Assembly: GCA_964434895.1 (NCBI GenBank) | Contig: CAYSXG010000001.1 | Location: forward strand, 1,701-65,700 | Length of the DNA: 64,000 nucleotides | Direction of reading: 5' to 3' | DNA from: an uncultured Solibacteraceae bacterium | GTDB taxonomy: Bacteria > Acidobacteriota > Holophagae > Holophagales > Holophagaceae | The notes under the pieces: generated by a model | What the model was told of the DNA's origin: nothing | Database searches by the model: none | The model's input: only the letters and a program-made list of their open reading frames with translations | Made by a program: the position numbers and the translations under genes | Shown here: positions 28,275 through 60,862 of the stretch, one piece after another | Layout: each line of letters starts with the position of its first letter | How positions within the stretch are numbered: position 1 is the stretch's first letter

Positions 28275-28384
28275 GGAGCGAGGGTCGGGGATTGCTGCGG
28301 CCGGGCGTCGATCCGTCCCGGATCATGCGTGCATGGCCAGGGCCGCTGGAACTGACGGGGCGGGCCTCGGGGGACGCTACCCTC

Positions 28385-29107: not shown

Positions 29108-29109
29108 CC

Positions 29110-44002: not shown

Positions 44003-44770
44003 TCAGTCAGCGGCTCGCTGGCAGAGGAGGGCGACTTCGAGGGAGGAGAGCTTTCCGCTCTCCGCCAGGGCCTGGACCTGGGCGCGGCTCAGCGGCGCGT
44101 CCGCGCCATCGGAGCCCAGGGCCTTGGTGATTGCGCGGGGGGCGGCGGAAGCCGGCACGGTCTCGTGGAGCTTGTCGAACCGGGACTGAAGCGTGGCGTT
44201 GTCAGCCAGGGCCTTCTTGAGCTCGCGGCCCTGACCCTTGAAACCCGCCTCCAGCTCGGCCACGGTCTGGGTCAGCTTGGCGATGATGTTGTTCTGGCTC
44301 TTCAGCTCCTGGAGGAGTTCCAGGAAGAGGGCGTTCATGTCGGGTTCGGTGATGTCCTCCAGGGTGTCCGTGGGCTCCATATGGCCCACCTCGGCGAGGC
44401 CCTTCTTGATCTCGCGTCCCTCGTCGTCACCTTCGTCGTCGGCGGATTCTTTGTCCGGCTTGGACTCGGCCGCAGCGTCATCACCACCGAATTCCTCGGG
44501 GTCCATGTCCTTGTGGCCGAACTCGTTGAAGTCGTCGCCCTGGTCCGCGTCAGCACCGGCGTCATCCCCGGATTCCTTGGCCTTGTCCAAATCCTCGGAG
44601 GTCGGCGAAGCGTCGCCCACACGGGAGTCGAGGCGGTCGGGATCGGCCGGGGGCTCCGGGACGGGATTCTTCTTCTGGTCCTCGGCCTGGTCCTTGCCCT
44701 CGCCCTTCGCCTCACCCTCGTTGAGGGACTTGAGGATGGAGCGGGCCTTTTCGGCGAGATTGGCGAACAT
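44003..44770 (-). CDS. Scaffolding protein
   Basis: 255 aa, highly acidic and helical, lying between the protease and the capsid gene. Confidence 0.6.
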   Translation of the reverse strand: MFANLAEKARSILKSLNEGEAKGEGKDQAEDQKKNPVPEPPADPDRLDSRVGDASPTSEDLDKAKESGDDAGADADQGDDFNEFGHKDMDPEEFGGDDAAAESKPDKESADDEGDDEGREIKKGLAEVGHMEPTDTLEDITEPDMNALFLELLQELKSQNNIIAKLTQTVAELEAGFKGQGRELKKALADNATLQSRFDKLHETVPASAAPRAITKALGSDGADAPLSRAQVQALAESGKLSSLEVALLCQRAAD

Positions 44771-44778
44771 CGAGCCTC

Positions 44779-45648
44779 CTAAGCGGCGGCGCCCAACAGG
44801 GCGAGCAGGACCGCGAACGTGTGGTTCTGGGGGACGCCCTGGGCCTGCATGGCCTCAAAGAGGGCGGAAGGGGACGCAATCCGGCCTTCGGCGAGGGCCT
44901 CCAGAACGGACTGGACGGTTTGCGCGTTGAGGTCGCCGGGCAGGTCCGACTGGGCCAGTTGGGAGCCGCGAAGGTCGCGCAGCACGGCGGCCAGACCTTG
45001 GGCACTACCGAGGGCCTTAGCGAAGGTGCGAAGCGGGAGGGTGGTGAGCGCGGGCACATCCGGGTTCACCGGCGTCCGGGATAGCCCCACGCTCTGCCAG
45101 AGCAGGCCACCGATTTCCGTGGTGGGCAGGCCCGATGGGTCCACCACGCCGGCCTCGTTCGTGACCATGCCGTGGACGGAGGGATACCAAAGCACCGGCG
45201 GCGCCGTATGCAGACTGTCCCAGAACAGGTCCGCCGCTTCGGTCCAGCGATTGCCGTCCTGCGCGGAGGAGAAGATGGCGGCCTTCACCATGACGGAATC
45301 GCCCTCGGGGCGGGCGTCCAGGGGGCGACCAATTTCCCAGGCGTAGGGGTCCACGCGCTGCCCGCGAATCTGGCCGATCACCGAGGCATGGTCCAGGTCG
45401 ATGCGGCCGTGGCGGAGGAAGTAGGGAATGGACCCAATGAGGGCCCGCGCCAGGATCCGCTCACCCTGCACATCACGGGACTGGGTGGAGGCCTGGAAGT
45501 AGACGCAGCGGACGCCACCTTCAACGTGGGGCGTCGCCTTCATCAGCAGGCGGCCCGTCTCCACCCGGAAGGGGATGCCAGGCTGATCCGCACCGCTGGC
45601 CAGGGCCATGAGGCCGACCGCCGCGGCTGTGGTGAGGGGACTCGCCAT
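44779..45648 (-). CDS. Prohead maturation protease (HK97/S78-like)
   Basis: 289 aa. DVQGERILARAL...HGRIDLDHAS..VIGQI and LWQSVGLSRTPVNPDVPAL match the His and Ser regions of the family by eye. Confidence 0.6.
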   Translation of the reverse strand: MASPLTTAAAVGLMALASGADQPGIPFRVETGRLLMKATPHVEGGVRCVYFQASTQSRDVQGERILARALIGSIPYFLRHGRIDLDHASVIGQIRGQRVDPYAWEIGRPLDARPEGDSVMVKAAIFSSAQDGNRWTEAADLFWDSLHTAPPVLWYPSVHGMVTNEAGVVDPSGLPTTEIGGLLWQSVGLSRTPVNPDVPALTTLPLRTFAKALGSAQGLAAVLRDLRGSQLAQSDLPGDLNAQTVQSVLEALAEGRIASPSALFEAMQAQGVPQNHTFAVLLALLGAAA

Positions 45649-45775
45649 GGGGCGAGAGTCAGCCGATTCAAAGCCCCCGTGCCGAGCCGTCCCGCGCCAT
45701 TACGCGATGACGCGAGGCGCCGGGAAATGGGGCCGGAGCACCCGGGGACGCTGGACAGGCAAGAGGAGCGACCGC

Positions 45776-48700
45776 GTGACGCACATCAAGGCCTTCTACC
45801 GCAAAGTCAACGGCCGGGTGGTCTATGTGTCGGATCACGATGACAAGCGGACCACCGCGACTCTTCATCAAGCCGCGAGCACGCGCACCCCCAAGGCGCA
45901 CCCTCCGAAGGCCCTTCGCCATGGGATCACGCCTGGATCACACCGGGACGGAAGCCACTTCCTCCGGGCTGGCAGCCGAGAGGGCGCCGAAGCCATCCAG
46001 GAAGCCGCCCGAAAGCACGGGATCTCCCTCTCCCACCGCAAATCCCCGGCCATCCACCAGGGACAGCGCGACGTCTTCAGCCACTTCCATCACGCGGATC
46101 TTAAGGCCATCAAGGCGGTCCACACGGAACTCCAGACCCAGCAGATCCAGAAGGACTCGAATGAGGTCTTCGGGGACCAGGAGAAGGCCCGAAAGGCCTA
46201 CGAGGCCCATCCGGAGAGCAAGGGCGGGAAAAAGATCGACGTGGACGAGGCCCGTGAGCTGGTCCCCAGCTACCGGGAGAACCGGACCCTCGGGGCAGCG
46301 ATTGTCCACGCCGACGCCTCGAAGTTCGCCAAGGAGCAGTTCGAGCACCGGATGGCCATGCCCAAGCAGGAGCGGAACGAGGTTGTGGCCTTCATGGCCG
46401 GCGGCGGAGGCTCAGGCAAGGGCACGGCCGCAGACAAGTTCCAACTTGAGGACGCCGCTCATACCATCGTGGACGGCGCCTTTTCCAACTTCGAGAAGGC
46501 CAAGGCTCAGATCGAGCGGGCCCGCGCCTCGAAGAGAAGGGTGGAAATCAATTTCGTGTACCGGCCGATTGAGAAGGCCGTGGCCGGGATGGTGGGCCGG
46601 GCCCACGGAACGGGGCGCATCGTTCCCCTGGACGTGCTGGCCGAGGCGCACCGGGGCGCCCACGAAACCATCCGCAAGCTCATCGAGCACTACGGCGAAT
46701 CGAACCCCATGGTCCGCATCCGCATCTTCGACAACAGTGGGGACAGCATCCATGACGTGACCGCCGTGCCGCGCCAGGACATGCTCAAGTTCCTCGACAA
46801 AACCGCCTACGACGACACCATTGCGGATCGCGTCGCCGGGGCCTATCGTGAGGTTAGGGAGAAAGGCTATGAGCACAAAGGACAACGACATCAAACTGAA
46901 TCCCGAATCACCGATCACCTCGACCGAGGATTGCGAGCCCTGGACGGACGAGGAATTCGACACCCGCACGGAGCAGCTACTGGGCATCCTTCGGGGGACG
47001 AAGGCGGCAACCAAGCACGACGCCCCAGAGACGAAGGCGAGCTAGACCCGAAGAAGCCCGGGAGGGGCATCGCCAAGGCCCTCCGCGAGATCTTCAAGGC
47101 TCATATCAAGGGCCACATTCGCGTGATCGACGGCAAGACCGTCTGGATCGCCGCGCACGAGGACAAGCGCCAGGGCCGAGAGGCCCGGCTGCACGAGCGC
47201 ACGGTCAGGGGCGAGACCAGGGGCGGCCTGCACTACCTCCGCGCCAGCGACGCCGACGATGCGGCCACCATCCGGAAGGTTGCCCACCGGGCGGGGATCT
47301 TCCCGGTCGAGCAGAAGGGCAACGCCAACCACCTGGGCCGGGAGGGGAACTACACCCACTTCCATTTCCAGTTCCCGGGGCAGGCCGAGGCCGTACACCA
47401 GGCCCTGCGCGACCAGCAGGAGGCCCCTGAGCCGATTCAGGCCGGGCTATTTGATGAAGTGCCAGAGCAAATCGGTGGCCCCACCGAAATGGTCCCGGCC
47501 GAGCGTGCGGTAGCAGAACCCAAGGAAGACGGCCCCAAGGACAGGGCTCCGCACTGCATGTATCCCTCTCTCGTGGATGACGTGCAGCGGGAAAAAATTG
47601 AACAATGGCACAGGGATGGCGCAGACCCCGCACGAAGGCCCGCTGAGAGGGCTATTTACCTACCTGGAATGTCAAAGGGGAAACTCGACAGACTTCTTCA
47701 AAAAAACACCATGACCCTAGACGAAATTGAGGGCCTCAAGGACTACAAGTATCTAATCCTGGCGCAGCCTAACGATGCTTGGGAAATGGGCTTCATGACC
47801 CGCTACGCAAGCGATCATGGCGATGTATTGGCCCCCAAGAACAAGTTTCTACTTACGAACATTGACGCCAAGCTAGAAGGGGTATCGAACCCTCCGCAAG
47901 AGGGCCCCAAGGAAGGCGACCGCAACGAGGAACGCCTCGTCTTCCATGACGGCCGCTGGCACCGCGATAATCCCGCCCCTTCCGATCCGCCAAGCGTGGA
48001 AACGGATACGGGGGCGCCCGAGCCCGTGCCGGCGCCCCCAGCCTCCGACCCCATCGCCCTCGAAACTCGGCGGGCCCTCCTGGAGCGCATCGACCAGGGG
48101 ACCATCACCCCGGCGGAGCTGGTCCAGGCCTGGGAGGCCTTCCAGGTGGCCAAGCCCGGACTCAAGGCCGAGCTGGATGGCCTCAGCAAGGCCAAGTGCA
48201 TCGAGCGGATCCGCCCCCTCGGATTCAATGTGGACCCCAAGACCAAGATGACCAAGGACAGCATCATCAAGGCCGTCCTGGACCGGATGACCAAGCCCTT
48301 CAACGTCCAGGGCGTGATGAGCTGGTCCCCGTTCTCCGAGACCTACGAGGCCGCCCTGGACCGCGTGGTTCGCGCCACCACCCCCGAGCAGATCGCCACC
48401 CACGCCGCAGAGGTGGCCCAGGCCAAGGAGAACCGCAAGGCCGCGCTGGAGAAGATCCAGAAGGCCATCGAGAACCCGGAGACCCTGGAGGACTTCGAGC
48501 TCCGGGCCAAACAGGAGGCCCCCGATCTCACCGCCGAGCAGCGCCGGCGGTGGGAGGAACTCAAGGCCGACGCCCAGCGCCAGGCCACCGGCGCGAAGGC
48601 TCCCACACCGGCGGCCAGCATGGACGGCCTGGACCTGGAACTCCACGATACAAAGCACACCAAGACCGGCGAGACGCTCCACGTCGTCACCATCAGCCAG

Positions 48701-50155
48701 CGGGTGGACCGCAGCATCTACGAGCAGCTCCTGGCCAAGGCCAAGGGCCTGGGCGGGTGGTACAGCTCCTACCGCGGGAACGGAGCCATCCCGGGCTTCA
48801 CCTTCAAGACCCCAGAGGCCGCCAAGGCATTTATGGGGCAAACCAGCGAGGAGGGCGCCATAGCCCCGGTCCCCGCCGCTGAGGAGCGCCAGGCCGTCCG
48901 CCAGGAGAAGGTGAGCAGCAAGCTCCGGGACATGGCCGAGAAGATGAAGGAACAGGCCGAGGGCTCCCTAGTCCAGGACCGCCGCACCGGCACCCACCGC
49001 CAGGCCCGAATGGCCGCCAGCGCCGAAGCCGTAGCCCATGGCCAGATCGCCATGGCCAACACCATGACCAACCTGGCCGCCGCCATCGAAGAGGGGAAGG
49101 CCAAGCACTTGGCCGGACTCACCACCAGGACCCAGATCGAGACCCTGAACAGCATCCTCAGCCAGGCCATCCGTGAACACCAGAGGGCCCAGGGCCTCAG
49201 CTACGCCCAGAAGCAGGCCGAGGAAGGCCGCGCCGCCAATCAGGAGGACGTGGACCACGCCGAATACCCCTACCCGGAAATCTGGGATCACATCTTCGGG
49301 AACATCACACGGGAAGCCACGCACGTCCCAGGGACAAAACGAGCCCTTGCCCGGCTCGCCACCGCGCTCCATGGCAAGGAGCACATCAAGCTGGACACCC
49401 CGGACCTCATCGAGGCCGGGACCACCCTGGCCCAGAAGATCGGGAACACATCCATCGGGAAGCGCCTCAAGGATCTCCTCACCCGCTACACCCGCCTCCA
49501 GGCCGCCAGGATCCAAAGCCCTGAGCAGCTCCGGGCTGCCCTGCGCGAGTACCTGGTCTACAAGTCCATGGCCCCGGGCGCGGACCCCATCAAGACTGCC
49601 GAGCGCTCCCTCATCGGCGCCAAGATCCCAGGCTACTTCCCAACCCCCTCGGCCCTGGCCCAGGAGGTGGTGGACAAGGCCGACATCGCCCCCGGCATGA
49701 AGATCCTGGAGCCCTCCGCCGGCAAGGGGAGCCTCATCGACGCCATCCACGAGGCCTACGGCAAGGACGCCGTGGAGGTGGAGGCCATCGAGCCCGTCTC
49801 CAGCCTTCGGACCATCCTGGAGGCCAAGGGCCACAAGCTGGTGGGCCGGGACATCATGGAGCATGAGGCCCTGGAAGGGTACGACCGCGTGGTGATGAAC
49901 CCACCCTTCGAGAACGGCCAGGACATGGAACACGTCCGGAAGGCCTTTGAACTCCTGAAGCCAGGCGGCCGCCTGGTGGCCATCACCTCTCCGGCCCCCT
50001 TCTTCCACCAGAGCAAGAAGGCCCAAGCCTTCCGCGAATGGTTCGATAGCCTGGGCGGAGTCCAGGAGAAGAACCCCGACGGCAGTTTCAAGGCGAGCGA
50101 CAACCCCACAGGCGTTGCCACCCACACCCTCATCATCGACAAGCCCGCGGCCTAG
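45776..50155 (+). CDS. Giant polyvalent-type protein: repeated LPD-like modules, Zeta-toxin-like P-loop kinase domain, C-terminal N6-adenine DNA methyltransferase
   Basis: The track ORF is 45608..50155. I prefer GTG 45776 (8 nt after AGGAG), with ATG 45707 as the alternative. Walker A is FMAGGGGSGKGT, near 46391. MTase motif I is ILEPSAGKG (about 49703) and motif IV is NPPF (about 49897). Continuity across 46869..47045 is doubtful. Confidence 0.55.
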   Translation: MTHIKAFYRKVNGRVVYVSDHDDKRTTATLHQAASTRTPKAHPPKALRHGITPGSHRDGSHFLRAGSREGAEAIQEAARKHGISLSHRKSPAIHQGQRDVFSHFHHADLKAIKAVHTELQTQQIQKDSNEVFGDQEKARKAYEAHPESKGGKKIDVDEARELVPSYRENRTLGAAIVHADASKFAKEQFEHRMAMPKQERNEVVAFMAGGGGSGKGTAADKFQLEDAAHTIVDGAFSNFEKAKAQIERARASKRRVEINFVYRPIEKAVAGMVGRAHGTGRIVPLDVLAEAHRGAHETIRKLIEHYGESNPMVRIRIFDNSGDSIHDVTAVPRQDMLKFLDKTAYDDTIADRVAGAYREVREKGYEHKGQRHQTESRITDHLDRGLRALDGRGIRHPHGAATGHPSGDEGGNQARRPRDEGELDPKKPGRGIAKALREIFKAHIKGHIRVIDGKTVWIAAHEDKRQGREARLHERTVRGETRGGLHYLRASDADDAATIRKVAHRAGIFPVEQKGNANHLGREGNYTHFHFQFPGQAEAVHQALRDQQEAPEPIQAGLFDEVPEQIGGPTEMVPAERAVAEPKEDGPKDRAPHCMYPSLVDDVQREKIEQWHRDGADPARRPAERAIYLPGMSKGKLDRLLQKNTMTLDEIEGLKDYKYLILAQPNDAWEMGFMTRYASDHGDVLAPKNKFLLTNIDAKLEGVSNPPQEGPKEGDRNEERLVFHDGRWHRDNPAPSDPPSVETDTGAPEPVPAPPASDPIALETRRALLERIDQGTITPAELVQAWEAFQVAKPGLKAELDGLSKAKCIERIRPLGFNVDPKTKMTKDSIIKAVLDRMTKPFNVQGVMSWSPFSETYEAALDRVVRATTPEQIATHAAEVAQAKENRKAALEKIQKAIENPETLEDFELRAKQEAPDLTAEQRRRWEELKADAQRQATGAKAPTPAASMDGLDLELHDTKHTKTGETLHVVTISQRVDRSIYEQLLAKAKGLGGWYSSYRGNGAIPGFTFKTPEAAKAFMGQTSEEGAIAPVPAAEERQAVRQEKVSSKLRDMAEKMKEQAEGSLVQDRRTGTHRQARMAASAEAVAHGQIAMANTMTNLAAAIEEGKAKHLAGLTTRTQIETLNSILSQAIREHQRAQGLSYAQKQAEEGRAANQEDVDHAEYPYPEIWDHIFGNITREATHVPGTKRALARLATALHGKEHIKLDTPDLIEAGTTLAQKIGNTSIGKRLKDLLTRYTRLQAARIQSPEQLRAALREYLVYKSMAPGADPIKTAERSLIGAKIPGYFPTPSALAQEVVDKADIAPGMKILEPSAGKGSLIDAIHEAYGKDAVEVEAIEPVSSLRTILEAKGHKLVGRDIMEHEALEGYDRVVMNPPFENGQDMEHVRKAFELLKPGGRLVAITSPAPFFHQSKKAQAFREWFDSLGGVQEKNPDGSFKASDNPTGVATHTLIIDKPAA
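46869..47045 (+). CDS. 58-codon +1-frame ORF embedded in the giant ORF (acidic mini-protein, or the ancestral frame)
   Basis: ATG after AGGGAGAAAGG. MSTKDNDIKLNPESPITSTEDCEPWTDEEFDTRTEQLLGILRGTKAATKHDAPETKAS. My hand count of third-position GC is about 80% in this frame and about 50% in the main frame, which has 7 CGA codons here. Confidence 0.4.
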   Translation: MSTKDNDIKLNPESPITSTEDCEPWTDEEFDTRTEQLLGILRGTKAATKHDAPETKAS

Positions 50156-50177
50156 CCGCCACCCTCCAAGGAGCCCC

Positions 50178-51365
50178 ATGACCACCGAAGCCAAAGGCCT
50201 TCCCGGCGAAGAGGCCGCCCTGCACGAGCGGACCGCCTGCGGGGCGCACAAGGACGGGTCCTTCTACCTCCGTGCTTGCGACGAGGAGGACGCGGGCCAC
50301 ATCGAGGCCGCCGGCAAGAAGCATGGCATCAGCATGGAGAAGCGCAGCGCCGAGGCCGAGCACCACGGCCGCAAAGGCGTTTACCCCCACTTCCACAGCA
50401 AGGACGCCGCAGGCCTCAAGAAGGTGCTGGAGAGCCTGAAGCCCGAAGGGGAGGCCCAGGAGGAAGGCACTGACACCCCCACAGATACCCACGATGGCGG
50501 CAAGCACATCCACCTCCACCTTCACGAAGGCGAAGGCCGGGAAGTGAAGAAGAGCCACATCGCCGACTACGCACAGACGCGAGGCGGGAAGTTGGTCCAA
50601 GTTCGCAGCCACGAGCGGCACCCCATCGACCACCAACTCCGGCACATCTTCGAGTCGATCCGAAAGGGCCATCGCGCACGGGCCGAGGGCCGAATCCTGA
50701 CCCACGAGGAGGTCAAAAAGCACCTCTCCCGCTTTGACGAGTCTCCCCGCCAGACCACCGTTGACGAAGCGATTCATGACGCCGAGAAGAAGGACGGTCT
50801 CAGCCACGAGGAGACTGGGGCACGGTACAGCGAGGCGGCCAATCGGGCAGAGGGTCTAAGCCAGGCCAACTACGAAGGGGTGCCCAAGGCCGAGGACGAA
50901 TACGCTGCCCACGAGGCCCATACCGAAGCCGCCAAGCGGGCGCGGGAACACGCCGAGGCCTTGGGGGACGGGAAGGAGCAGCATGGCGGCACCGCGTCCG
51001 ACTACCACAAGGCCGCCGCCGACCATGACAAAGCCGCGGCCTGGCACAAGTACCTGGGTGACGCGAAGATGAAGGGCCGCCCCGTGAAGAAGTCCTTGGA
51101 TCCAGCCCAGGCTGACGCCTTGGCCGAGGTCTTGGGAGCCGCCCAGCGATGGAACGCCGAAAGCAGCAACCCCCGCTCCATCACCAAGGCCCTGGGCGAG
51201 ATGGACGAAGCCCAGAAGGCCTTGGACGCCATCTTTCAGGCCGCCCAGACCGGGCTCGACCACGGCACCGTGCTTGACGCCATCAACCTCGCCACCGGCG
51301 GCGCCGCCAAGTTCCATTCGGCGGTGGACGAACTCCTGAAACAGAAACCAAGCGCCATGCCGTGA
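50178..51365 (+). CDS. His-rich polyvalent-associated protein carrying the third copy of the repeated module
   Basis: ATG after AAGGAG (residue 22 of track ORF 50115..51365). Module sequences are LHERTACGAHKDGSFYLRACDEEDAGHIEAAGKKHGI...YPHFH and KKSHIADYAQTRGGKLVQVRSHERH. Confidence 0.55.
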   Translation: MTTEAKGLPGEEAALHERTACGAHKDGSFYLRACDEEDAGHIEAAGKKHGISMEKRSAEAEHHGRKGVYPHFHSKDAAGLKKVLESLKPEGEAQEEGTDTPTDTHDGGKHIHLHLHEGEGREVKKSHIADYAQTRGGKLVQVRSHERHPIDHQLRHIFESIRKGHRARAEGRILTHEEVKKHLSRFDESPRQTTVDEAIHDAEKKDGLSHEETGARYSEAANRAEGLSQANYEGVPKAEDEYAAHEAHTEAAKRAREHAEALGDGKEQHGGTASDYHKAAADHDKAAAWHKYLGDAKMKGRPVKKSLDPAQADALAEVLGAAQRWNAESSNPRSITKALGEMDEAQKALDAIFQAAQTGLDHGTVLDAINLATGGAAKFHSAVDELLKQKPSAMP

Positions 51366-51385
51366 ACCCAACTGATCCATGAAAT

Positions 51386-51410
51386 GGCCCGGGTTTCCGG
51401 GCCATTTTTG
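51386..51410 (+). terminator. Rho-independent terminator
   Basis: Stem GGCCCGG, loop gttt, stem CCGGGCC, followed by ATTTTTG. It starts 21 nt after the stop at 51365. Confidence 0.7.
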
Positions 51411-51421
51411 CGTCTGAACTA

Positions 51422-51452
51422 CTAATTTTGACTTCTGTTAGAAGCAAATTAG
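51422..51452. promoter_or_regulatory. AT-rich interrupted palindrome upstream of the SNF2 gene
   Basis: CTAATTT-tga-CTTCT-gtt-AGAAG-ca-AAATTAG, read directly. It contains TTGACT. Confidence 0.3.
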
Positions 51453-51543
51453 CAGTTCCACTCCAGCCCCGGGATCCCGCGCCACGAGGTGACGGCAAGG
51501 GCTAGAGACCGTCCACGCTTCCTCCGGCTTCGACCCTGGACCC

Positions 51544-54500
51544 ATGGACGGCCTTCTCTTCCGCGACCCCTCTGGGGAGGTTCTACCTCTGGAGGTGGTG
51601 GGCTGGGACGAGCTTGACCTCCGCGAGATCACGAAGGGAGGCGACGCCGCTCCGCCAGGCGCCCGCTGGATCACCGTCCACCCCCATGGGAGCGATGGGC
51701 CCGGCCGCCCCGTCCTCATCCGCGAGGTGAAGGGCAGCCACGGCGTCTTCCACATCGTCGGCGGCGCCTCCGGCAAGCTGAACGGCCTCCGCCTCCAGAA
51801 CGTGAAGAGCCCCGAGGAATACAAGGCCGCCGCGAAGGATCGCGCCAAGGAACTCAAGGCCAAGCGCAAGGAAGCGGAGAAGAGCCTCACGCCCGAAGAG
51901 CGCGAGAGCCGCAAGCTGGACAAGCAGGCCGCGCATTCAGCCGTGAAGGACGCGGAGAAGCGCCTCATCGAGGCCACCCTCAAGGCCAAGGGCCTGGATC
52001 CGGCACAGGCCGAACTGGACACCGACAACAACCTGGCGCGGGTAAAACATCACCGGGCCCTGCTCTCCGAGGCCATGAAGAGCGCCGCCCAGGCGGAGAA
52101 GTCCCTGGTGCTGGACGCCCAGGCCCGCATGGAGGCCGGCCTTGAGACCGTGGGCGGCGACCAGCAGCTTGACGCGGATACCGTGCTCACCACCAAGGAC
52201 GTGGAGGCCGGCGCCGGCTACCAGCGTGGCCTGAAACAGAAGGCCGAGGAGGCCGGGCTCACCCAGCAGGGGCTGGCCGACACTGCGGCCGAGCTTCGGG
52301 AGCAGGCCGCCAAGAACCGCGTGGAGGCGGGCGACTTCACCGACTACCACACCAAACTCGGGGGCGGGGATCCCGTCCTCGGCATCCAGATCGTCGGCGC
52401 CCGCATGGGCGAGCTGAACCGCCAGGCCCACCAGCAGGCGAAGGCCGCCCAGGGCCACGCCACCCAGAACACCCGCGAGGCCATGAAAGCGGCGGCCACC
52501 GACAACCAGGCCCTGGCCGAGATCCTTGCTGCCCGGAAAGCCTTGCGGGAGGCCCTGAAGGGGGCCAAGCAGGGCAAGCCCCCCATCTTCGCCAAGGCCT
52601 TCCAGGCTCACCTGGAAGAGCTCACCGATGGAGCAATCCAGGACATCGAGGACCAACTCCGCACCGAACGGTTCCAGGGGTTCCTGGATGAGGTGGAGAA
52701 ATCCTTCCCCGAGCCCACGAGCACCATCGACCCGGACCACATCCCCGAGGATGGGCTCCACGCCAGCCGCCACACCGGCGCCTTCGACGCCCTCCACGAG
52801 ATCGGCCTGGGCGTCATGGGCCAGGGCGCCATCAGCCGCGAGGCCGTGGAAGTCCTGGGGCCGGATGGCGCCGCCACCATCCTGGCCCGCGCCCTCAAGA
52901 GCGGCTACACCCACGAGGAGCAGGCCGAAATCCTGGAGGCCCTTGAAGGCGTCCACCAGGACGAGCAGGAGAAGGATCTCCCCCAGGCCATGGCCTATGC
53001 CTCTCAGCTTCGGGACGAGGCGGCCAAGGTCGGGGAAGAACTGGCCGAGAATGCCAAGGATCTGGCCATCGCCGCCGAGATGCAGCGCAACAAGGTGGCC
53101 TTGCTCAAGGAAGCCCGGCGCACCGTGGGCGCGATGCTGGGGCGCATGGAGGCCCGGGCGGCCCTCATCGCCGCCATGCAGGGCGCCCCCAGCGACCGCC
53201 TGACGGTCCCCATCGGGAAGAACCGGGAGACCGCCATCCAGGCCGCCTACGCCCTGGGCCTGGAGAATGGGGACTACCACCTGGACCAGGACCGGGGCGA
53301 GGTGCTCCTCCATCTCACCGGCCAAGGGCAGAATCGCCTCATTCGCCCCGTAGACCAGGCTGCCCTCGCCGAGCGCGAGACGGCCATGGCCATCAAGCGC
53401 GGCGACCTTGACGAGGACGGCTGGATCCCCAAGGGGTTCACCCGCCGCACCGCCCTCCGGAGCGATGACCCACTCCTGGAGCCCCCCATGTTCCGCCAGC
53501 CGTTCCAGGTGGCCCCCGATGCCACGCCGGAGCAGCTCCAGGAATCCATCGAGGACTACATCGGGGCCCGCTACGCAGACGGCGACCGCGCCACGGACAT
53601 CCTCCAGAGCCTCAACAACGCCAGCCGGTTGGATTCTGTTCCGGAGCCCCTCTGGGAGACCTACCAGGAGAAGGTCCGCCAGGCCCTGCCCCTCCGAGAG
53701 GCCGTCCTAGACGCCGAGGGAAACCAGGCCTTCGACGTGGACGAGGACAGCGACGAGCAGCTCCCCCGCACCCGTGCCGCCAAGGCCGAGACCATCGACC
53801 GGGCCGCCCAGGCCATGGCCGAGCGCTACTTCGAGCGCAAGGGCCTCCGGGGCGACCTAGCCTTCTACCGTCAGGGCATCGACCCGGATAGCGATGCCTT
53901 CCGAGAGAGCGCCCACCGGGCCCTGGCCAAGAACCCGCGGGCCTCCGCGGCCTTCACCCCTGTCGGAGAGCTCACCAGCGACCAGCAGCGGGACCTGCGG
54001 GAGCACTTTTACGAGAGTCTGGCCCAGCAGAGCGCCAAGAAGGAGACCCGGGCCCAGAACAACGAGGCCGCCGCTAAGGATGCGGCCGGGCCGGAGCCCC
54101 CGGAGTACGAGCTCGATATGTTCGGGGAGCAAAGCCACACCCCGGAATGGCTGGAATGGCACGAGCGCGTCCAGACAAACCTGGCCGCCGAGCAGGGCCA
54201 GGCCGAGGGCGCCGCGCCAGCCGAGGACCCGGAAACGCCATGGGCCCGCTTCGTGGAGACCATGGGCGGGCTCAAGGACGCCCAGAGGGCCGTCCAGGAC
54301 CACATGGCCAGCGAGTTCCTCGGGAACTTCGCCGAGAGCTACCAGAACGCCACGGGCCAGAAATTCAAACAGGGCCAGGCCAAGGTCCATATGGCCGACA
54401 AGTTCATCAAGGCCACCGGGACTGCGGAGCAGAAGGCCCAGGCCCGGGCCGAGCGCCAGGCAGAGGTGGAAGCCAACCGTGGGCGCGGACCTGGCGGGAA

Positions 54501-56382
54501 GTTCAAAGAGGGCTCCATCAATGCCCGCATTGAGGAGAAGCGCCAGCGCGGCGCCACGGCCGAGGCCGAGGCCGGTGGACTCTTCGATCTGGGCGACTTC
54601 ACCCAGGCCCCTGCCCCGGCCCCCGAGGAGGCCCAAAAACCCTTTGCCCTGGCCCCGGGCTACCGCCTGAGCTTCGGCCCCCGACTGGAGGCCCAGCTCC
54701 GCCAGGCCCTGCCTGCGGCCGCCGCCATGATGCAGGGGCAGAAGAAGGCCGTCGCCCTCAAGTCCAACCTCAACATGAGCGGGCGATTCATCGCCCAACA
54801 GCGCGGCATCAAGGCCATCACCCACTTGCACCGGATCGGCCTTTTCTACGGGGCCGGGAGCGGCAAGACGAGCGTGGTGCAGGGCGCCCATGCCGAGCTT
54901 CACGCCGCCGGCAAGGTCCAGAAGGCGATCTACGCAGTCCCCTCCGCCGTCCAAGCCCAGTTCGGGGCCGAGGCGGCCATGTTCATCGACCCGAGCTCTG
55001 GCCTCCACATCCACGCCAAGCCGGGCGAGACATTCGAGGAACGGATCCGCACCTACCAGGCCCCCGACATCCACGGCGTCGTCGTCACCCACCAGGCCCT
55101 GCGGGACGACACCCTGAAGGTGCTCGGCCAGCATGTCGGTAAGGAGGGCGAGGCCCTAAAAGCCTGGGTCCACGGCGCCAAGCGCCAGGAGCTGGCCCAG
55201 GCCGTCAAGGACGCCTGGGGCAAGGCCAGCGTGAACTACCAGGCCCTTTTCCTGGACGAGGGGCACAACGCCCTGAACCGGGCTGGGAAGGAGGACAGCA
55301 CCCTCGCCAAGATCATCGACGCAGTTGGCGACACCTCCACCTACTACGCCGGCGCCACCGGCGACCCCATCAAGAACGACCCCTCTGAAGCCTACGACTG
55401 GCTCACGAAGATCGACCCCCGGCGCTACCCGCCCGAGGGCCGCGACGAGTTCATGCGGCGCTTCGGGGGCAACACGGCCGCCACCCGGCGCAGCCTCAAG
55501 GCCGAGCTGGCCCGCTATTACTTCGCCGAGCGCGTGGACCCCGGAGTTCAGGCCCACCACGAAATCGTGAAGGCCAAGGTCACGCCAGAGCAGCAGCAGA
55601 CCCTGGCGGCGCTGGACGCGAACATGAACCGCCTCCGCACCGCCAGGACCCCGGAGGAGGTGCTGGAGCGGGCCAAGGCCTTCGCGCCCGAGGCCTTCGA
55701 GGGCAAGGACGGGATGGAGCCGCAGGCCATCGCCGACAGCGTGAAGAAGGCCGTGGGCACCTTCAAGGAAGCGGCCTACAACCGGATCCTCAACTGCGAT
55801 CCCAAGGGCGGCAAGGTCCAGGAGACCGTGGCCCAAGCCAAGGCCTCCATCGCAGACGGCCGCCCTCCCATCATCTTCGCCCGCAACCTGGCAGCCGTGG
55901 AGGCCATCCACCAGGCCATGGAGGCGGCCGGAATCCATGTCACGACCCTCACCGGCAAGCACAGCGCCGCGGAGAAGGCCGAGCGCATCAAGACCTTCCA
56001 GCCCACGAACTGGAACCACCCCGATCCGGCCCAGCGGGCCAAGCCGGGCGCGGAGGCCATCGTCATGTCCGACGCAGGAGCCACGGGCATCAACCTCCAG
56101 AGGGGCGCGGACGTGATCCACCACGACATCCCCCAGACCCACATGACCCACAGCCAGCGCACCGCCCGGGCCCACCGGCTGGGCCAGACCCGGGACGTGC
56201 GGGTGAAGACCATCGCCGCCGACCACGCCTTCGACCAGAACAACCTCCAGCGCCTGAAGCGCAAGGAGGCCTTGGCCGGGATCTTCAAGAGCCCCGAGGG
56301 CTTCCTGGACGACTCCGGCATCGCCGAGCGCATGAGGGCCCTGCGCCAGCGCCGCCTTTCCACCCAAACCACCGCCGCCTAA
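51544..56382 (+). CDS. Giant protein with a C-terminal SNF2-family helicase
   Basis: 1612 aa. The N-terminus has ARWITVHPHG...PVLIRE...GGASGKLNGLRL. Helicase motifs are GAGSGKT (about 54851), LDEGHN (about 55252) and THSQRTARAHRLGQTRDV (about 56150). Confidence 0.8.
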   Translation: MDGLLFRDPSGEVLPLEVVGWDELDLREITKGGDAAPPGARWITVHPHGSDGPGRPVLIREVKGSHGVFHIVGGASGKLNGLRLQNVKSPEEYKAAAKDRAKELKAKRKEAEKSLTPEERESRKLDKQAAHSAVKDAEKRLIEATLKAKGLDPAQAELDTDNNLARVKHHRALLSEAMKSAAQAEKSLVLDAQARMEAGLETVGGDQQLDADTVLTTKDVEAGAGYQRGLKQKAEEAGLTQQGLADTAAELREQAAKNRVEAGDFTDYHTKLGGGDPVLGIQIVGARMGELNRQAHQQAKAAQGHATQNTREAMKAAATDNQALAEILAARKALREALKGAKQGKPPIFAKAFQAHLEELTDGAIQDIEDQLRTERFQGFLDEVEKSFPEPTSTIDPDHIPEDGLHASRHTGAFDALHEIGLGVMGQGAISREAVEVLGPDGAATILARALKSGYTHEEQAEILEALEGVHQDEQEKDLPQAMAYASQLRDEAAKVGEELAENAKDLAIAAEMQRNKVALLKEARRTVGAMLGRMEARAALIAAMQGAPSDRLTVPIGKNRETAIQAAYALGLENGDYHLDQDRGEVLLHLTGQGQNRLIRPVDQAALAERETAMAIKRGDLDEDGWIPKGFTRRTALRSDDPLLEPPMFRQPFQVAPDATPEQLQESIEDYIGARYADGDRATDILQSLNNASRLDSVPEPLWETYQEKVRQALPLREAVLDAEGNQAFDVDEDSDEQLPRTRAAKAETIDRAAQAMAERYFERKGLRGDLAFYRQGIDPDSDAFRESAHRALAKNPRASAAFTPVGELTSDQQRDLREHFYESLAQQSAKKETRAQNNEAAAKDAAGPEPPEYELDMFGEQSHTPEWLEWHERVQTNLAAEQGQAEGAAPAEDPETPWARFVETMGGLKDAQRAVQDHMASEFLGNFAESYQNATGQKFKQGQAKVHMADKFIKATGTAEQKAQARAERQAEVEANRGRGPGGKFKEGSINARIEEKRQRGATAEAEAGGLFDLGDFTQAPAPAPEEAQKPFALAPGYRLSFGPRLEAQLRQALPAAAAMMQGQKKAVALKSNLNMSGRFIAQQRGIKAITHLHRIGLFYGAGSGKTSVVQGAHAELHAAGKVQKAIYAVPSAVQAQFGAEAAMFIDPSSGLHIHAKPGETFEERIRTYQAPDIHGVVVTHQALRDDTLKVLGQHVGKEGEALKAWVHGAKRQELAQAVKDAWGKASVNYQALFLDEGHNALNRAGKEDSTLAKIIDAVGDTSTYYAGATGDPIKNDPSEAYDWLTKIDPRRYPPEGRDEFMRRFGGNTAATRRSLKAELARYYFAERVDPGVQAHHEIVKAKVTPEQQQTLAALDANMNRLRTARTPEEVLERAKAFAPEAFEGKDGMEPQAIADSVKKAVGTFKEAAYNRILNCDPKGGKVQETVAQAKASIADGRPPIIFARNLAAVEAIHQAMEAAGIHVTTLTGKHSAAEKAERIKTFQPTNWNHPDPAQRAKPGAEAIVMSDAGATGINLQRGADVIHHDIPQTHMTHSQRTARAHRLGQTRDVRVKTIAADHAFDQNNLQRLKRKEALAGIFKSPEGFLDDSGIAERMRALRQRRLSTQTTAA

Positions 56383-56394
56383 AGGAGCGAGACC

Positions 56395-56784
56395 ATGACC
56401 CTTTCCGTCACCGTCGCCACGAAGAACGCCCAGCTCAATGCCTATGGGGCGAACTTCAATTCCGGACTCCTGAAAATCTACGCCGGCACCGTTCCTGCCG
56501 ATGCGGATGCCGCGCTCACGAGCCAAACACTGCTGGGCACGCAGACCATGGGCGCCACCGCCTTCGCGGCTGCGGCAGCCGGCTCCATGTCGGCGAACCC
56601 CATCACCCAGGGCAACGCCGTGGCCACCGGAACCGCCAGCTTTTACCGCGCTTACAAGGGCGACGGCACCACGGTCATCGAGCAGGGCACGGTCGGCACC
56701 TCTGGCGCTGATCTGAACCTCAACACCACAAGCATCGTGAACGGCGGCCCCATCCAGATCACGTCTTTCGTCCGGAACATGTAG
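56395..56784 (+). CDS. Small virion-like protein (129 aa)
   Basis: Track ORF with an A/T/G-rich, beta-type composition. It looks like a recurring phage family that I cannot name. Confidence 0.45.
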   Translation: MTLSVTVATKNAQLNAYGANFNSGLLKIYAGTVPADADAALTSQTLLGTQTMGATAFAAAAAGSMSANPITQGNAVATGTASFYRAYKGDGTTVIEQGTVGTSGADLNLNTTSIVNGGPIQITSFVRNM

Positions 56785-56792
56785 GCCCACCA

Positions 56793-57890
56793 ATGCCTAC
56801 GCCTTCCTTCACCTTCGTCACCGTCGCAGCCGCCACATCCGGCCTCAAGATGGATGTGGCCGAGCTGGTCAACGGCCCAAACACCGTCGAGCGCCAGGTG
56901 GTCGTCTTCGGCGACCCTTCCACCGCTGCGGCCGTGGCAGGCGTGATGAACTCCGCACCGACAGGGACGGAGTATGGCGTGGTGGTCCGGAACATCCCAA
57001 GCGGCCAGCAGCCCATCATCGGGGTGCAGGACGCCCGGGTGACGGGGGCCATCACCACGGCCACCGGAACCGTGCTGGCGGCCATGACCAACCGGAATGT
57101 GGCCACCTTCACGGTCTGGGGCACCTACGCCGGGGTGACGTACATCTTCGAGGCCTCGGATGACGGCGGCACCACCTGGTTCACGGTCCAAGCGGTGAAC
57201 AACGCCACGGGACAGGTCGGATCCACTTGGACCCCAGGCACCAACGCCAGCGCCTCCTACGACATGGTGGTGGGCGGATTCACGCATGTCCGCCTACGCG
57301 CGACCGCCTGGACCAGCGGCACCATGAACGTGGGCATCACCGCCCAGGTCTTCGCCTACGAACCTGCTGGTGCCGTACTGGCCCAGGGCACGGCTGCCTC
57401 TGGTTCGCCTGCCCTGGGGAATCCCGTGCTGATGGCGGGCCTGGAGGGCGCGAATGCGCGGGCGCTGACGATGAAAGCCGCCAGCACCGCCGCGGCTGCT
57501 GCGGACCCCGCCGCGGTGGTGGCCCTGAGCCCCAACTCACCCATCACGCTGACCACGCCCACCGCCCATACACTGAACAGCGCCGCCACCACCAACGCCA
57601 CCAGCGTGAAGGCCAGCGCGGGAACGCTCTACGGCATCGCCGTGAGCAACGTCTCCGCCAGCACGCGGTATTTCAAGCTCTACAACAAGGCCAGCGCCCC
57701 GACCGTGGGCACCGATACCCCGGTGCTCGTCATTCCCATTGCCGCGGGCGGCGTCGCAAACTTTCCCCTTGGAACCCTGGGGCTTCGCTTTGGGACCGGT
57801 CTCGCCTACGCGATCACGGGGGCTGCGGCCGACACGGACACCACCGCCATCGCCGCCGGCGATTGCAAGGTGTTCTTGAGCTACCTGTAA
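56793..57890 (+). CDS. Virion-like protein with two beta-sandwich-like halves (365 aa)
   Basis: Track ORF. The call rests on composition and context only. Confidence 0.45.
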   Translation: MPTPSFTFVTVAAATSGLKMDVAELVNGPNTVERQVVVFGDPSTAAAVAGVMNSAPTGTEYGVVVRNIPSGQQPIIGVQDARVTGAITTATGTVLAAMTNRNVATFTVWGTYAGVTYIFEASDDGGTTWFTVQAVNNATGQVGSTWTPGTNASASYDMVVGGFTHVRLRATAWTSGTMNVGITAQVFAYEPAGAVLAQGTAASGSPALGNPVLMAGLEGANARALTMKAASTAAAAADPAAVVALSPNSPITLTTPTAHTLNSAATTNATSVKASAGTLYGIAVSNVSASTRYFKLYNKASAPTVGTDTPVLVIPIAAGGVANFPLGTLGLRFGTGLAYAITGAAADTDTTAIAAGDCKVFLSYL

Positions 57891-57899
57891 GGCGCCACG

Positions 57900-59435
57900 G
57901 TGCTCCTCACCCTGCAAACCCAGGCATTCTTCGGCACCTCCTCGGCTAGCCTCGGCCTGGGCGGAAGCGCGGCGGGAGCCCATGGGGAGACAGGTAGCAG
58001 CACAATCGCCTTGGCCCTCAGCGGCAGCTCCGGTGGAAGCCAAGGGGTTGCGGGGGCGGCCACGGGGGCCATCTTGGTGGCCGGGAACGCCTCCGGAAGC
58101 CACGGAACCACTGGAACCTCTTCCAGCGTCCTCGCCATCACCGGAGCCGCCTCCGGGGCCCAAGCTGAGAGCGGGAGTTCCTCTTCCACCCTCGCCCTTG
58201 CGGGCAGCGGAACCGGCACCCATGGCGTGGCCGGGCCAAACACCGCCCTCCTTCCCCTTGCAGGTACCGCAGCAGGCCTCCAGGCCATCGCCGGGTCCAG
58301 TTCGGCCACTCTGGCCATCGGAGGGGCTGCTACCGGAACCCTGGGGACCTCCGGGAACTCTTCCCGACCGCTGGTGCTCGGCGGTGCTGCCGCAGGAGCC
58401 CAAGCAGAAACCGGGGGCAGTTCCGCGTCGATGCCCTCCCTCACGGGCTCCGGGTTTGGGGCCCATGGCGCCGTGGGGACTTCGACCGCCACCCTTTCCC
58501 TCTCAGGCTCTGCCGCGGGTGTCATCGTCACAGCCGGGGCCAGCCTCGGAGCCCTCGCCCTGCTGGGTTCGGCCTCGGGGGCCCAGGGCGCAACGGGAAC
58601 CTCCACCAAGACCATCGCCCTCAGCGGGGCCGCCACGGGGACTCAGGGCCTTTCAGGCTCCAGTAATCTGGCCCTGAGCATGGCATGGGCAGCCCTAGGC
58701 GCTCATGGCACTACGGCCACCAGTACCGCCTCCCTGAGCCTTGGAGGAGCCATCGCGGCCCTTCAAGGCGAGACAGGTGCCTCCTCCGGCGCCTTGAGCC
58801 TCGGCGGGGCCACCTTGGGCACCCACGGGGCCTCTGGCACAGCCTCCAGCAGCCTCCAGATTCTTGGGACAGCTTCGGGGCAGGCACTGGGGCTGGCGGA
58901 CATCGGCACCTCAACAGCAGCATTGCCCTTCCAAGGGAGCGCCACCGGCACCCACGGCACGGACGGAGGGTCCTCGGCTGCGCTTTCCCTCTTCGGAACC
59001 AGCAGCGGGCACCATGGGGAGGCGGGGGCCAGCACCGCAGTTCTCTCGCTTTCAGGGGCTGGCATTGGCCTTCATGGAGCCACCGGATCAGTCCTCGGTG
59101 GCCTCCACCTTCAGGGCTCCGCCACAGGTGCGCATGGCGCCGCCGGAACCAGCAGCGCCGGGCTGATCATCCAGGCTCTTGGAGCCGGGGGCCACGGGGT
59201 CACAGGGGCCAGCTCAGGCCCCCTGACGCCCATGGGCTATGCCGAGGGGTTCGCCTTCGCTCCCACTTCCCACGCGGACCCAATCAGAACCAGCACCATC
59301 CCCGCCGAGACCAGGGCCGCGAGGGTCGCTCCCGACCTGCGCACGGCGGCAGTGCAAAAAGAGGAGAGGCGCACGGCCATCCCGGCCGAGGTCCGCGTCC
59401 AGACCGTTCACGCCGAGCCCCGGAGGATCGCTTGA
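57900..59435 (+). CDS. Tandem-repeat fibre-like protein (21 x ~20 aa)
   Basis: GTG start, 511 aa. Repeat consensus is G-[ST]-A-x-G-x-[HQ]-G-x-x-G-x-S-[ST]-x-x-L-x-L-x. The C-terminal tail has IPAExR repeats. Confidence 0.6.
   Translation: MLLTLQTQAFFGTSSASLGLGGSAAGAHGETGSSTIALALSGSSGGSQGVAGAATGAILVAGNASGSHGTTGTSSSVLAITGAASGAQAESGSSSSTLALAGSGTGTHGVAGPNTALLPLAGTAAGLQAIAGSSSATLAIGGAATGTLGTSGNSSRPLVLGGAAAGAQAETGGSSASMPSLTGSGFGAHGAVGTSTATLSLSGSAAGVIVTAGASLGALALLGSASGAQGATGTSTKTIALSGAATGTQGLSGSSNLALSMAWAALGAHGTTATSTASLSLGGAIAALQGETGASSGALSLGGATLGTHGASGTASSSLQILGTASGQALGLADIGTSTAALPFQGSATGTHGTDGGSSAALSLFGTSSGHHGEAGASTAVLSLSGAGIGLHGATGSVLGGLHLQGSATGAHGAAGTSSAGLIIQALGAGGHGVTGASSGPLTPMGYAEGFAFAPTSHADPIRTSTIPAETRAARVAPDLRTAAVQKEERRTAIPAEVRVQTVHAEPRRIA
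57963..59234 (+). repeat. Coding tandem repeat, about 60-nt period, 21 units
   Basis: Residues 22-445 of the protein parse into units of 20 aa, except one of 21 and one of 23. The nucleotide copies have diverged. Confidence 0.7.
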
Positions 59436-60643: not shown

Positions 60644-60862
60644 ATGGCGCAAGACCCTTTAGCCCCGGCCCGCCGCCTACTGGCCGAACTGGACGCGGAG
60701 ACGCGCCAGGCGGAAGCCCACCTCCAGGCCCTCGTGAAGGAGGGCGGCGACCACTTCCGCCAGGTCCACCAGGACGCCCTGCCCCACCTCACACCCGACA
60801 ATGTGGAGACCTGGAGCGCCCAAGCCGGGGCCCTGGCCTCCCTGGAGGATCTGCATGGGTAA
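60644..60862 (+). CDS. Hypothetical 72-aa helical protein
   Basis: Internal ATG (residue 54) of track ORF 60485..60862. Confidence 0.4.
   Translation: MAQDPLAPARRLLAELDAETRQAEAHLQALVKEGGDHFRQVHQDALPHLTPDNVETWSAQAGALASLEDLHG

Follow-up and report, generated by a model that had tools for sequence, protein, structure and literature searches.

A divergent gene block beside the head genes of an uncultivated myovirus or prophage encodes a predicted kinase-methyltransferase fusion and a giant SNF2-type helicase

The window analysed here is a 64,000-nucleotide stretch (~66% GC) of contig CAYSXG010000001.1, assembled from an uncultured Solibacteraceae bacterium and originating from a tailed phage or prophage. 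Positions 45776 to 56382 carry a block of three open reading frames, ORF1, ORF2 and ORF3, from an uncultivated myovirus or the prophage of one; these genes and all features within them lie on the plus strand. The block probably represents, at a probability of roughly 0.6, a late, head-module-linked operon of polyvalent, capsid-delivered effectors that functions like the Dar proteins of phage P1 but is not a split DarB. This reading is carried by the domains of the gene products, the synteny conserved among related loci, the exchange of cargo genes at a fixed slot beside the prohead protease gene and the homology of one ORF1 segment to a virion protein.

A slot between the protease and helicase genes

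ORF1 extends from a GTG start codon at 45776 to 50155 and encodes a protein of 1459 amino acids (aa) composed of two cassettes, each headed by a module of ~80 aa described below. ORF2 (ATG at 50178 to 51365; 395 aa) lacks a detectable enzyme domain, while ORF3 (51544-56382; 1612 aa) encodes a giant helicase. These coordinates and lengths coincide exactly with the 1459, 395 and 1612 codons given in a first-pass annotation made from the sequence, although its description of three giant ORFs does not suit ORF2. The same annotation placed the block back-to-back with the prohead protease gene, which is borne out: the prohead (head maturation) protease gene (44779-45648, minus strand) is the first of an operon diverging from the block, followed by a scaffold-like gene (44003-44770, minus strand) and the gene for the major capsid protein (MCP; 42496-43941, minus strand; phrog_752, E 1e-62). 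The protease is 39% identical to the annotated 'head maturation protease' of phage PHB04, 38% identical to the 'putative prohead protease' of phage Mecenats66 (E ~1e-36) and 61% identical to that of the related locus L006, and it also matches phrog_1028 weakly. The divergent intergenic region (45649-45775) measures 127 bp and includes a GAGGAG Shine-Dalgarno sequence 5' of the ORF1 start codon. At the other end of the block, a gene for a 129-aa protein (56395-56784, plus strand; phrog_3758 'virion structural protein', E 1e-30) starts 12 nt past the ORF3 stop codon with its own AAGGAG sequence, which ties ORF3 to late/structural transcription.

Loci related to the window were recovered via ORF1, ORF2, ORF3 and the module (L005, L006, L008, L009/L010, L011, L012, L015 and L016/L017), with one alignment-based locus search using a 10-sequence alignment. 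Where the available sequence suffices, they repeat the layout of the window, with baseplate, MCP, scaffold and protease genes on one strand and module-headed genes followed by an ORF3-type helicase gene on the other. The same layout is found in L006, L008, L009/L010, L012 and L016/L017, and parts of it in L011 and L015. Compared with the window proteins, the proteases are 50-61%, the MCPs 51-66% and the helicases 39-52% identical. L010 shows one relative to be a prophage, located on a 331-kb contig from a metagenome-assembled genome (MAG) of the Acidobacteria.

The slot between the protease and helicase genes contains one to three or more genes, and its cargo differs from locus to locus. In the window it holds the 1459-aa protein (zeta kinase and methyltransferase) and the 395-aa protein, in L008 a 370-aa protein and in L009 a 632-aa protein. 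The slot of L006 encodes proteins of 1340 aa (HExxH motif), 748 aa and 181 aa, while that of L012 encodes proteins of 626 aa, 820 aa (WGR) and 458 aa, and more; the HExxH motif of the library protein P0005 was read by eye. Proteins of 957 aa (InPase) and 472 aa, and more, are encoded in L011, proteins of 1750 aa (LPD1 and ART-PolyVal) and 565 aa in L015, and proteins of 1582 aa, 502 aa and 173 aa together with PBECR3 in a separate gene in L016. Orthologs of ORF2, which have in common the module and a C-terminal helical domain, comprise P0002 and the 748-aa, 370-aa, 632-aa and 565-aa proteins of L006, L008, L009 and L015, respectively, and within the slot ORF2 is the conserved 'core' gene. By position, ORF1 corresponds to the 'extra' giant cargo gene, and the locus of P0060 (LPD1 and ART-PolyVal) has the gene order of the window, namely giant protein, ORF2-like protein and helicase. 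The architecture, which the first-pass annotation did not recognise, is therefore less unprecedented than it supposed, as the relatives keep the gene order with other payloads.

Module and enzyme domains of the three products

Self-comparison revealed three copies of the ~80-aa module, at ORF1 residues ~45-121 (copy A, 45908-46138), ORF1 residues ~467-546 (copy B, 47174-47413) and ORF2 residues ~10-88 (50205-50441). The copies match each other at E 1e-13 to 2e-15 (blastp), with copy A against the ORF2 copy giving 2e-15, and a module profile detects them with domain E values of 1e-33 to 1e-39 (hmmsearch; 1.1e-33 for copy A and 6.6e-36 for copy B). Each copy is accompanied by a basic, beta-hairpin-like motif of the form H-I-K-x-x-x-R-x-x-x-G-x-x-V-x-V-x-x-H-x-x-x-R. 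Motif A (HIKAFYRKVNGRVVYVSDHDDKR; 45782-45850) occupies the extreme N-terminus of ORF1, motif B (47102-47170) lies directly before module copy B and is preceded by a Gly/Pro/Arg-rich linker, and the motif of ORF2 is located at 50556-50621. The segment comprising motif B and copy B (47102-47413) shares 52% identity with the N-terminal end of P0005. Motif A also opens the 370-aa and 632-aa slot proteins of L008 and L009 and is part of the consensus of a 65-member family alignment.

No Pfam model covers the module, DUF3801 matching copy A weakly (E 0.08), and among 1.84 billion representative proteins the module profile detected only 64 clusters. In these proteins of 184-1750 aa the module usually occupies residues ~20-120, and the other domains they carry include InPase (nine members), WGR (six members), DUF5710, LPD1, ART-PolyVal and PBECR3; ORF1 alone among the module carriers combines it with a zeta kinase. 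Genomic context was examined for five of the 64 clusters (P0001, P0002, P0060, P0061 and P0098, the last without DNA) and for P0005, which came from a word-indexed search. A module was found at or near the N-terminus of every slot gene tested (E 1e-13 to 1e-40), and what appears new here is an unnamed N-terminal module that, as judged by profile matches, marks every tested cargo gene of a fixed slot. The module profile did not detect it in PHB04, Mecenats66, H66, P1 (1-50 kb), L007, L013 or L014. AlphaFold2 (AF2), supplied with a 42-sequence alignment, predicts a beta-beta-alpha-beta-beta-alpha fold with a predicted local distance difference test score (pLDDT) of 94-98. Conserved residues include R18, R32, D38, H62 and H71 and the stretch 'HHGRxGxYxHFH', while the Cys found in ORF2-type copies is missing from ORF1 copy B and P0005, and the His next to it is missing from copy B too.

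Profile searches uphold the kinase, methyltransferase (MTase) and SNF2 helicase proposed in the first-pass annotation (Pfam Zeta_toxin, E 7e-14; Pfam MTS, E 1.1e-5; phrog_62 helicase, E 4e-68), and all of the motifs it quoted are present. The assignment of one enzyme to each ORF does not hold, as both the kinase and the MTase are encoded in ORF1 and no enzyme domain was found in ORF2. Nor do the proteins consist of little but enzymes and linkers: about two thirds of their residues belong to conserved non-enzymatic domains, comprising the three ~80-aa modules, a ~540-aa region of ORF1 of the F116/H66 type and a ~1050-aa N-terminal region of ORF3. A Pfam search of the unassigned parts of ORF1-3 in ten segments (E <=1) yielded no credible LPD, MuF or MPTase domain.

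ORF1 reads as a fusion of two putative cassettes, a module with a kinase and a module with a helical region and an MTase. The zeta-toxin-like P-loop kinase (46199-46756; residues ~142-330) includes the motifs FMAGGGGSGKGT, RRVEINFVYRP and GRIVPLDV, and among solved structures it is closest to the Neisseria gonorrhoeae Zeta_1 toxin, ng_zeta1 (PDB 6EPH/6EPG; E 9e-10 over 180 aa). In the ng_zeta1 subclass two sequence blocks are swapped, placing the catalytic Asp56 ahead of the P-loop Lys115 (PMC5923241). ORF1 D157 (46244-46246) aligns with Asp56 and K215 (46418-46420) with Lys115, and by this order, in which the Asp block precedes the Walker A Lys, the kinase is assigned to the permuted ng_zeta1 subclass, with Asp157 as its predicted catalytic residue. 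The P-loop reads GGGGSGKGT. No small upstream gene for an epsilon antitoxin is apparent, the kinase being internal to ORF1, although no search aimed at epsilon was made. A zeta-like kinase also occurs in L007, an unrelated 107-kb contig, where three giant genes lie in a row (L007:1793-13567) and code for a 1421-aa Portal_Mu fusion, a 1257-aa protein with a weak anthrax-lethal-factor-like match and a 1188-aa protein with a zeta-like kinase at its C-terminus. The array is another head-module set of giant proteins with a recruited zeta kinase (P0006).

In the second half of ORF1, an EGPKEGDR..LVFHDGRWHR motif (47900-47965), which is common to ORF1 and P0005 and present in two copies in the latter, is followed by a mostly helical region of ~540 aa (48014-49630) whose homologs are the central parts of giant virion proteins of the F116/H66 gp60 type. 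ORF1 residues 747-1458 match the giant-protein families phrog_15406 ('DNA methyltransferase', E 1.6e-197) and phrog_11358 (E 1.6e-166), while residues 762-1459 are 36-43% identical to residues ~1337-2137 of gp60 of Pseudomonas phage H66 (tblastn). Residues 547-1285 have no match among PDB sequences. The last ~175 residues (~1286-1459; 49631-50152) form a TaqI-like, gamma-order N6-adenine MTase domain, and the MTase segment is 39-43% identical to the F116/H66 gp60-type virion proteins. Its motifs are GYFPTP (X-like, residue 1286), ILEPSAGKG (motif I, 1310) and NPPF (motif IV, 1375), an X-I...IV order that indicates a gamma-class (TaqI/EcoKI-like) enzyme without a target-recognition domain (TRD) between motifs I and IV. 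A C-terminal TRD is likewise lacking, because only 81 residues remain between NPPF and the stop codon. The domain also matches the PADLOC models mad2 (E 1.8e-17) and MTase_II (E 5.5e-8), and its best PDB match, although weak, is M.TaqI (E 0.016). The fusion of an ng_zeta1-type kinase to an H66 gp60-type MTase segment, as these alignments suggest it, likewise appears new.

The ATPase core of ORF3 (54793-56277) contains GAGSGKT (54850-54870), DEGH (55255-55266) and QRTARAHRLGQ (56155-56187), and by these superfamily 2 (SF2) motifs I, II (DExH) and VI, which are closest to those of SNF2-family enzymes, it is classified as an SNF2-type ATPase. It also matches Helicase_C (E 7e-9), and its PDB matches are all SNF2-family remodelers (E 8e-6 to 1e-3); the Pfam SNF2-rel_dom is recorded in several ORF3 homologs (P0023, P0028 and others), not in ORF3 itself. 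Residues 1-1080, which include a small N-terminal beta motif (ARWITVHPHG...; 51661-51690), are conserved in 42 clusters and modelled as a folded, mostly helical region (mean pLDDT 76) without a PDB match better than E 0.7. A conserved giant helicase with a ~1050-residue N-terminal region lacking a PDB neighbour is a further new element of the block. ORF3 is 52% identical to its L006 ortholog and 32% identical to PHB04 gp025 over 90% of its length, and further full-length homologs are encoded by Mecenats66 (ORF61) and the Thermus phages phiMa, Cumys and Lalka. The homologous genes of these phages adjoin the prohead protease gene and, in PHB04 and Mecenats66, lie between the portal and protease genes. 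Many metagenomic relatives carry an N-terminal InPase, which is not found in ORF3. The L006 ortholog (L006:17195-22177) has an N-terminal InPase as well as a Pfam Intein_splicing match (residues 1295-1618) at the position of Walker A.

ORF2 has a His content of 8%, and no enzyme domain was detected in it with Pfam, PHROGs, NCBIfam or PADLOC. Aside from the module, it comprises a conserved C-terminal helical domain (51087-51341), a bundle which AF2 models at pLDDT >90, and the ORF2 model has no neighbour better than E 0.07 in the PDB or BFVD. Searches for relatives by tblastn against phages returned none, and the word-indexed search returned one. Identity with Ulx was considered and rejected, with blastp against the PHB04 Ulx giving E 1.8 and the profile of the ORF2-family C-terminal domain giving probabilities of 0.05% and 0.34% against the Ulx proteins of P1 and PHB04, respectively. 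The region spanning residues 97-129, left disordered by AF2, contains the tract GGKHIHLHLHEGEG, which has the counterpart GGKHIHIHLHEGG in P0002.

Surroundings, proposed function and alternatives

ORF1-3 are real genes rather than chance ORFs of high-GC DNA, as indicated by their codon-position GC contents (0.82-0.90 at the third position, GC3; ~0.45 at the second, GC2), the good Shine-Dalgarno sequences ahead of ORF1 and ORF2 and their many homologs. Identical products are on record in NCBI/Logan, all from one 65,710-bp contig. Antisense ORFs of 427-545 aa overlie the three genes (55156-56793, 51937-53325 and 48968-50251, all on the minus strand); those for which codon-position GC was computed have GC1 values of 0.90-0.91 and GC3 values of 0.63-0.76, and they are high-GC shadow ORFs, not genes. 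The AT skew between 46000 and 56000 is ~+0.28 to +0.33, compared with roughly -0.09 to +0.18 elsewhere in the window, which sets the block apart in composition from the structural genes and likely reflects its Ala/Glu/Lys/Gln-rich helical proteins. Directly 3' of the ORF2 stop codon lies a GC-rich hairpin with a T-run (51374-51414, plus strand) resembling an intrinsic terminator; its predicted RNA fold has a free energy of -23.9 kcal/mol (z -4.5; 0/200 shuffles equally stable), and a consensus scanner missed it. No sigma-70 consensus promoter was found in a scan of 44500-58000, and the divergent intergenic regions of four loci (the window, L006, L008 and L009) hold no common conserved motif.

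The window also includes a tail sheath gene (25686-27425), baseplate genes and an SLT-domain protein gene. PHROGs and Pfam searches returned no match, and no portal or terminase, for its other large ORFs, such as 21232-23991, 28235-30105 and 32526-34076. Portal and terminase-like genes of L008 and L009 are located just past the helicase gene on the opposite strand, and beside this region the 101-kb metagenomic phage contig of L008 encodes adjacent DarT (PF14487) and Macro (PF01661) proteins, a DarTG-like pair (L008:21860-23579). To the right of the 129-aa structural protein gene, 56793-59435 (plus strand) holds two more ORFs, coding for an Ala/Thr/Gly-rich, fibre-like protein of 365 aa without a PHROG or Pfam match and a 511-aa protein made up nearly entirely of degenerate Gly/Ser/Ala/Thr repeats (L-x-L-x-G-x-A-x-G-x-x-G...) without a PHROG match. 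This region has no tandem repeat at the DNA level and an unusually high GC2 of 0.70.

If the block is a capsid-delivered operon, ORF1, ORF2 and ORF3 would be made along with the capsid proteins, the common hairpin and module of ORF1 and ORF2 would bring these two proteins into the procapsid or attach them to the ORF3 helicase, for which the DarB N-terminus offers a precedent, and at infection all three proteins would exit the capsid together with the DNA. Once inside the recipient cell, the kinase may, by analogy with ng_zeta1, phosphorylate UDP-sugar cell-wall precursors or a related nucleotide-sugar, with a weakened or reprogrammed envelope or host metabolism as the outcome. The SNF2-type translocase or a partner may move the TRD-less, TaqI-like MTase along the DNA, where it would, on the model of DarB, methylate the entering genome in cis and thereby blunt restriction. 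Tentatively, and with more doubt than the delivery of the block as such, the hairpin and ferredoxin-like module may be regarded as a portable address domain which docks swappable effectors to the procapsid or to the helicase N-terminal region.

Several observations weigh against capsid delivery or parts of it. We infer the presence of ORF1-3 in the virion, and the targeting role of the module is argued from its position and context. The fold of the module is a generic ferredoxin/ACT/PII-like one, with insignificant Foldseek neighbours (E >0.07). The helicase gene is a core rather than a variable gene, retained in PHB04, Mecenats66, L013 and L014, which are without the module, and because of this a role outside counter-defence, in replication, transcription or packaging, is conceivable for it. 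The P-loop of the kinase (GSGKGT) has a Gly where a Mg-binding Ser/Thr usually follows the Lys, so that the enzyme may be impaired or atypical. The MTase lacks a TRD, and the Pfam model that it matches, MTS, represents the small MTases, among which there are rRNA and protein MTases too; DNA is its likely but not certain substrate. The terminator-like hairpin and the 178-bp gap between ORF2 and ORF3 mean that the three genes need not form a single unit. Lastly, portal and terminase genes were not recognised in the window, tblastn queries from L008/L009, PHB04 and Mecenats66 giving no match.

Some of these observations would suit unpackaged, cytoplasmic phage enzymes, with the MTase modifying progeny DNA ahead of packaging in the manner of orphan phage MTases, the helicase acting as a replication, recombination or transcription factor, the kinase altering late host metabolism and the proximity to the head genes being the historical accident of an inversion. 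The conservation of the helicase across the clade and beyond, the missing TRD, the hairpin between ORF2 and ORF3 and the reliance on inference for packaging all point in this direction, as does the intein at the Walker A position of the L006 ortholog, since inteins typically sit in indispensable ATPases. Such an arrangement is nevertheless considered unlikely. Other genes for nucleic-acid metabolism, coding for a RecE-like exonuclease (3868-5397) and a further exonuclease (60801-62132), sit elsewhere in the window, a virion protein is among the homologs of the MTase segment, and a common N-terminal tag on unrelated payloads is hard to account for if the proteins stay in the cytoplasm. The slot genes of relatives furthermore carry InPase, ART-PolyVal, LPD1 and PBECR3, domains assigned to delivered proteins by Iyer 2017. 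A prophage defence or exclusion system, in which the zeta toxin would be an abortive-infection effector and the MTase and SNF2 protein a DISARM/BREX/MADS-like restriction module, is suggested by PADLOC matches to mad2, MTase_II and the DpdE, BrxHII, DrmD and ZorD helicases, by weak NCBIfam anti-phage helicase matches and by the relative residing as a prophage in an Acidobacteria MAG. The PADLOC and NCBIfam matches are, however, limited to generic MTase and helicase lobes, for the helicases the C-terminal SF2 lobe, and fall far under the curated cut-offs (e.g., 31 vs 1100 bits), and Pfam, NCBIfam and PADLOC identify no nuclease or other signature component in ORF1-3. The genes lie inside the structural module rather than at a prophage end, homologs occur in the isolated, cultured phages PHB04 and Mecenats66, and no epsilon antitoxin was seen, with the limit on that search noted above; a defence role is thus highly improbable.

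The module itself might be a functional domain instead of a tag, namely a His-rich metal- or ligand-binding domain, a DNA-binding domain or an auto-inhibitory domain silencing its payload until delivery. Its conserved Arg, Asp and His residues look like those of a binding or active site, the hairpin motif next to it has a strongly basic character, and the fold is akin to ligand-binding ACT/PII domains (probability up to 0.92, TM score 0.44), although at low significance. The structural matches are nonetheless insignificant, the Cys and adjacent His are not maintained in all copies, and the near-invariable N-terminal position before unrelated payloads better suits trafficking, which makes a purely functional domain improbable. 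The two roles are not mutually exclusive.

The choice by phages of large enzymes for capsid loading and injection is known in few model phages, with T4 and P1 using short N-terminal signals. The combination of a fixed slot, a recognisable common tag and natural payload swaps renders the targeting hypothesis directly testable, and the tag, if the hypothesis holds, could serve for loading capsids with foreign proteins. This myovirus clade would then gain new payloads simply by placing them behind the tag. Even if its products are unpackaged, the block is a well-delimited example of the polyvalent theme and comes from a phage lineage that has been sampled poorly and has a prophage of an Acidobacteria MAG among its members.

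Comparison with known delivered and toxin proteins

The similarity to the polyvalent proteins of phages and conjugative elements noted in the first-pass annotation is upheld, as an MTase-SNF2 dyad and a zeta-toxin-like kinase are already listed among their domains in the portion of Iyer 2017 used here (PMC5512222) and PolyVal domains occur in same-slot relatives. Like those proteins, ORF1 is large and combines unrelated enzymes in one polypeptide, and ORF3 joins its SNF2-type ATPase to the conserved ~1050-aa region; the block is encoded with late/packaging genes, in the same context in at least five related loci, and its payloads vary among relatives as cassettes. InPase, LPD1, ART-PolyVal and PBECR3 are similarly found in same-slot or module-headed proteins. 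In contrast, ORF1-3 have no LPD, MuF or MPTase-PolyVal Pfam match, the MTase and SNF2 ATPase belong to two polypeptides whose genes are separated by a third, and the recurrent N-terminal module falls outside Pfam. No mention of a zeta-MTase fusion was found in that portion of Iyer 2017 (PMC5512222).

The ng_zeta1 toxin shares with the ORF1 kinase the swapped block order and the conserved equivalents of Asp56 and Lys115. It is, however, part of a plasmid toxin-antitoxin system in which it is paired with an epsilon antitoxin, it has a second domain, and its P-loop reads GSGKTS rather than GSGKGT, whereas the ORF1 kinase is internal to a giant phage protein. The substrates characteristic of its subclass are UDP-activated sugars (UNAG/UNAM). 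The closest parallel for the second half of ORF1 is H66 gp60, whose GenBank annotation reads 'verified by mass spectrometry as part of the virion' and which has been described as an internal, ejected protein of the virion whose enzyme has to work inside the cell, in a way that recalls N4 gp50 (Hardies 2016, PMC4819975). H66 is a podovirus and its gp60 comprises 3787 aa, a central ~800 aa of which are common to both proteins; any T7 IVP-D-type part of gp60 outside this segment is not found in ORF1, while ORF1, from a myovirus, adds the kinase and two modules. The NCBIfam model of PLxRFG has no match in ORF1. The helicases of PHB04, Mecenats66 and the Thermus phages differ from ORF3 in being encoded co-oriented between portal and protease genes, without preceding module-bearing cargo genes.

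P1 DarB, an MTase-helicase protein of 250 kDa present at ~40 copies per virion and packaged via its N-terminal 30 residues (PMC9024508), protects DNA in cis against type I restriction. The echo of DarB perceived in the first-pass annotation stands as far as gene arrangement is concerned, since darB likewise diverges from portal and protease genes (prt/pro), but does not extend to a DarB divided over two polypeptides. DarB combines an N-terminal LPD36, for which Pfam returned no match in ORF1-3, with an EcoKI/TaqI-like MTase fused to a C-terminal SF2/SNF2 helicase. Its MTase does not match that of ORF1 (E 0.24), and only the helicase motif regions align weakly with ORF3 (E 3e-9 over 71 aa and 3e-6 over 333 aa at 22% identity; tblastn 9e-8). 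PHB04 encodes an ORF3 homolog beside a complete DarB-like MTase-helicase (gp027) and a Ulx-like gene, and because it carries both, ORF3 represents a separate helicase family rather than one half of DarB; a split DarB composed of ORF1 and ORF3 was rejected on these grounds. The Lalka phages also carry ORF3 homologs together with a DarB-like protein and Ulx, which their authors proposed to be packaged (PMC11437467). Comparison of ORF1-3 and the module profile with P1 (1-50 kb) showed no relatives of DarA, Hdf, DdrA or DdrB, and the P1 Dar proteins themselves have no N-terminal consensus that could be found (PMC9024508). If the module does act as an address, it would constitute a domain-sized equivalent, recognisable from sequence, of the short signals that target T4 IPIII and P1 DarB to the capsid.

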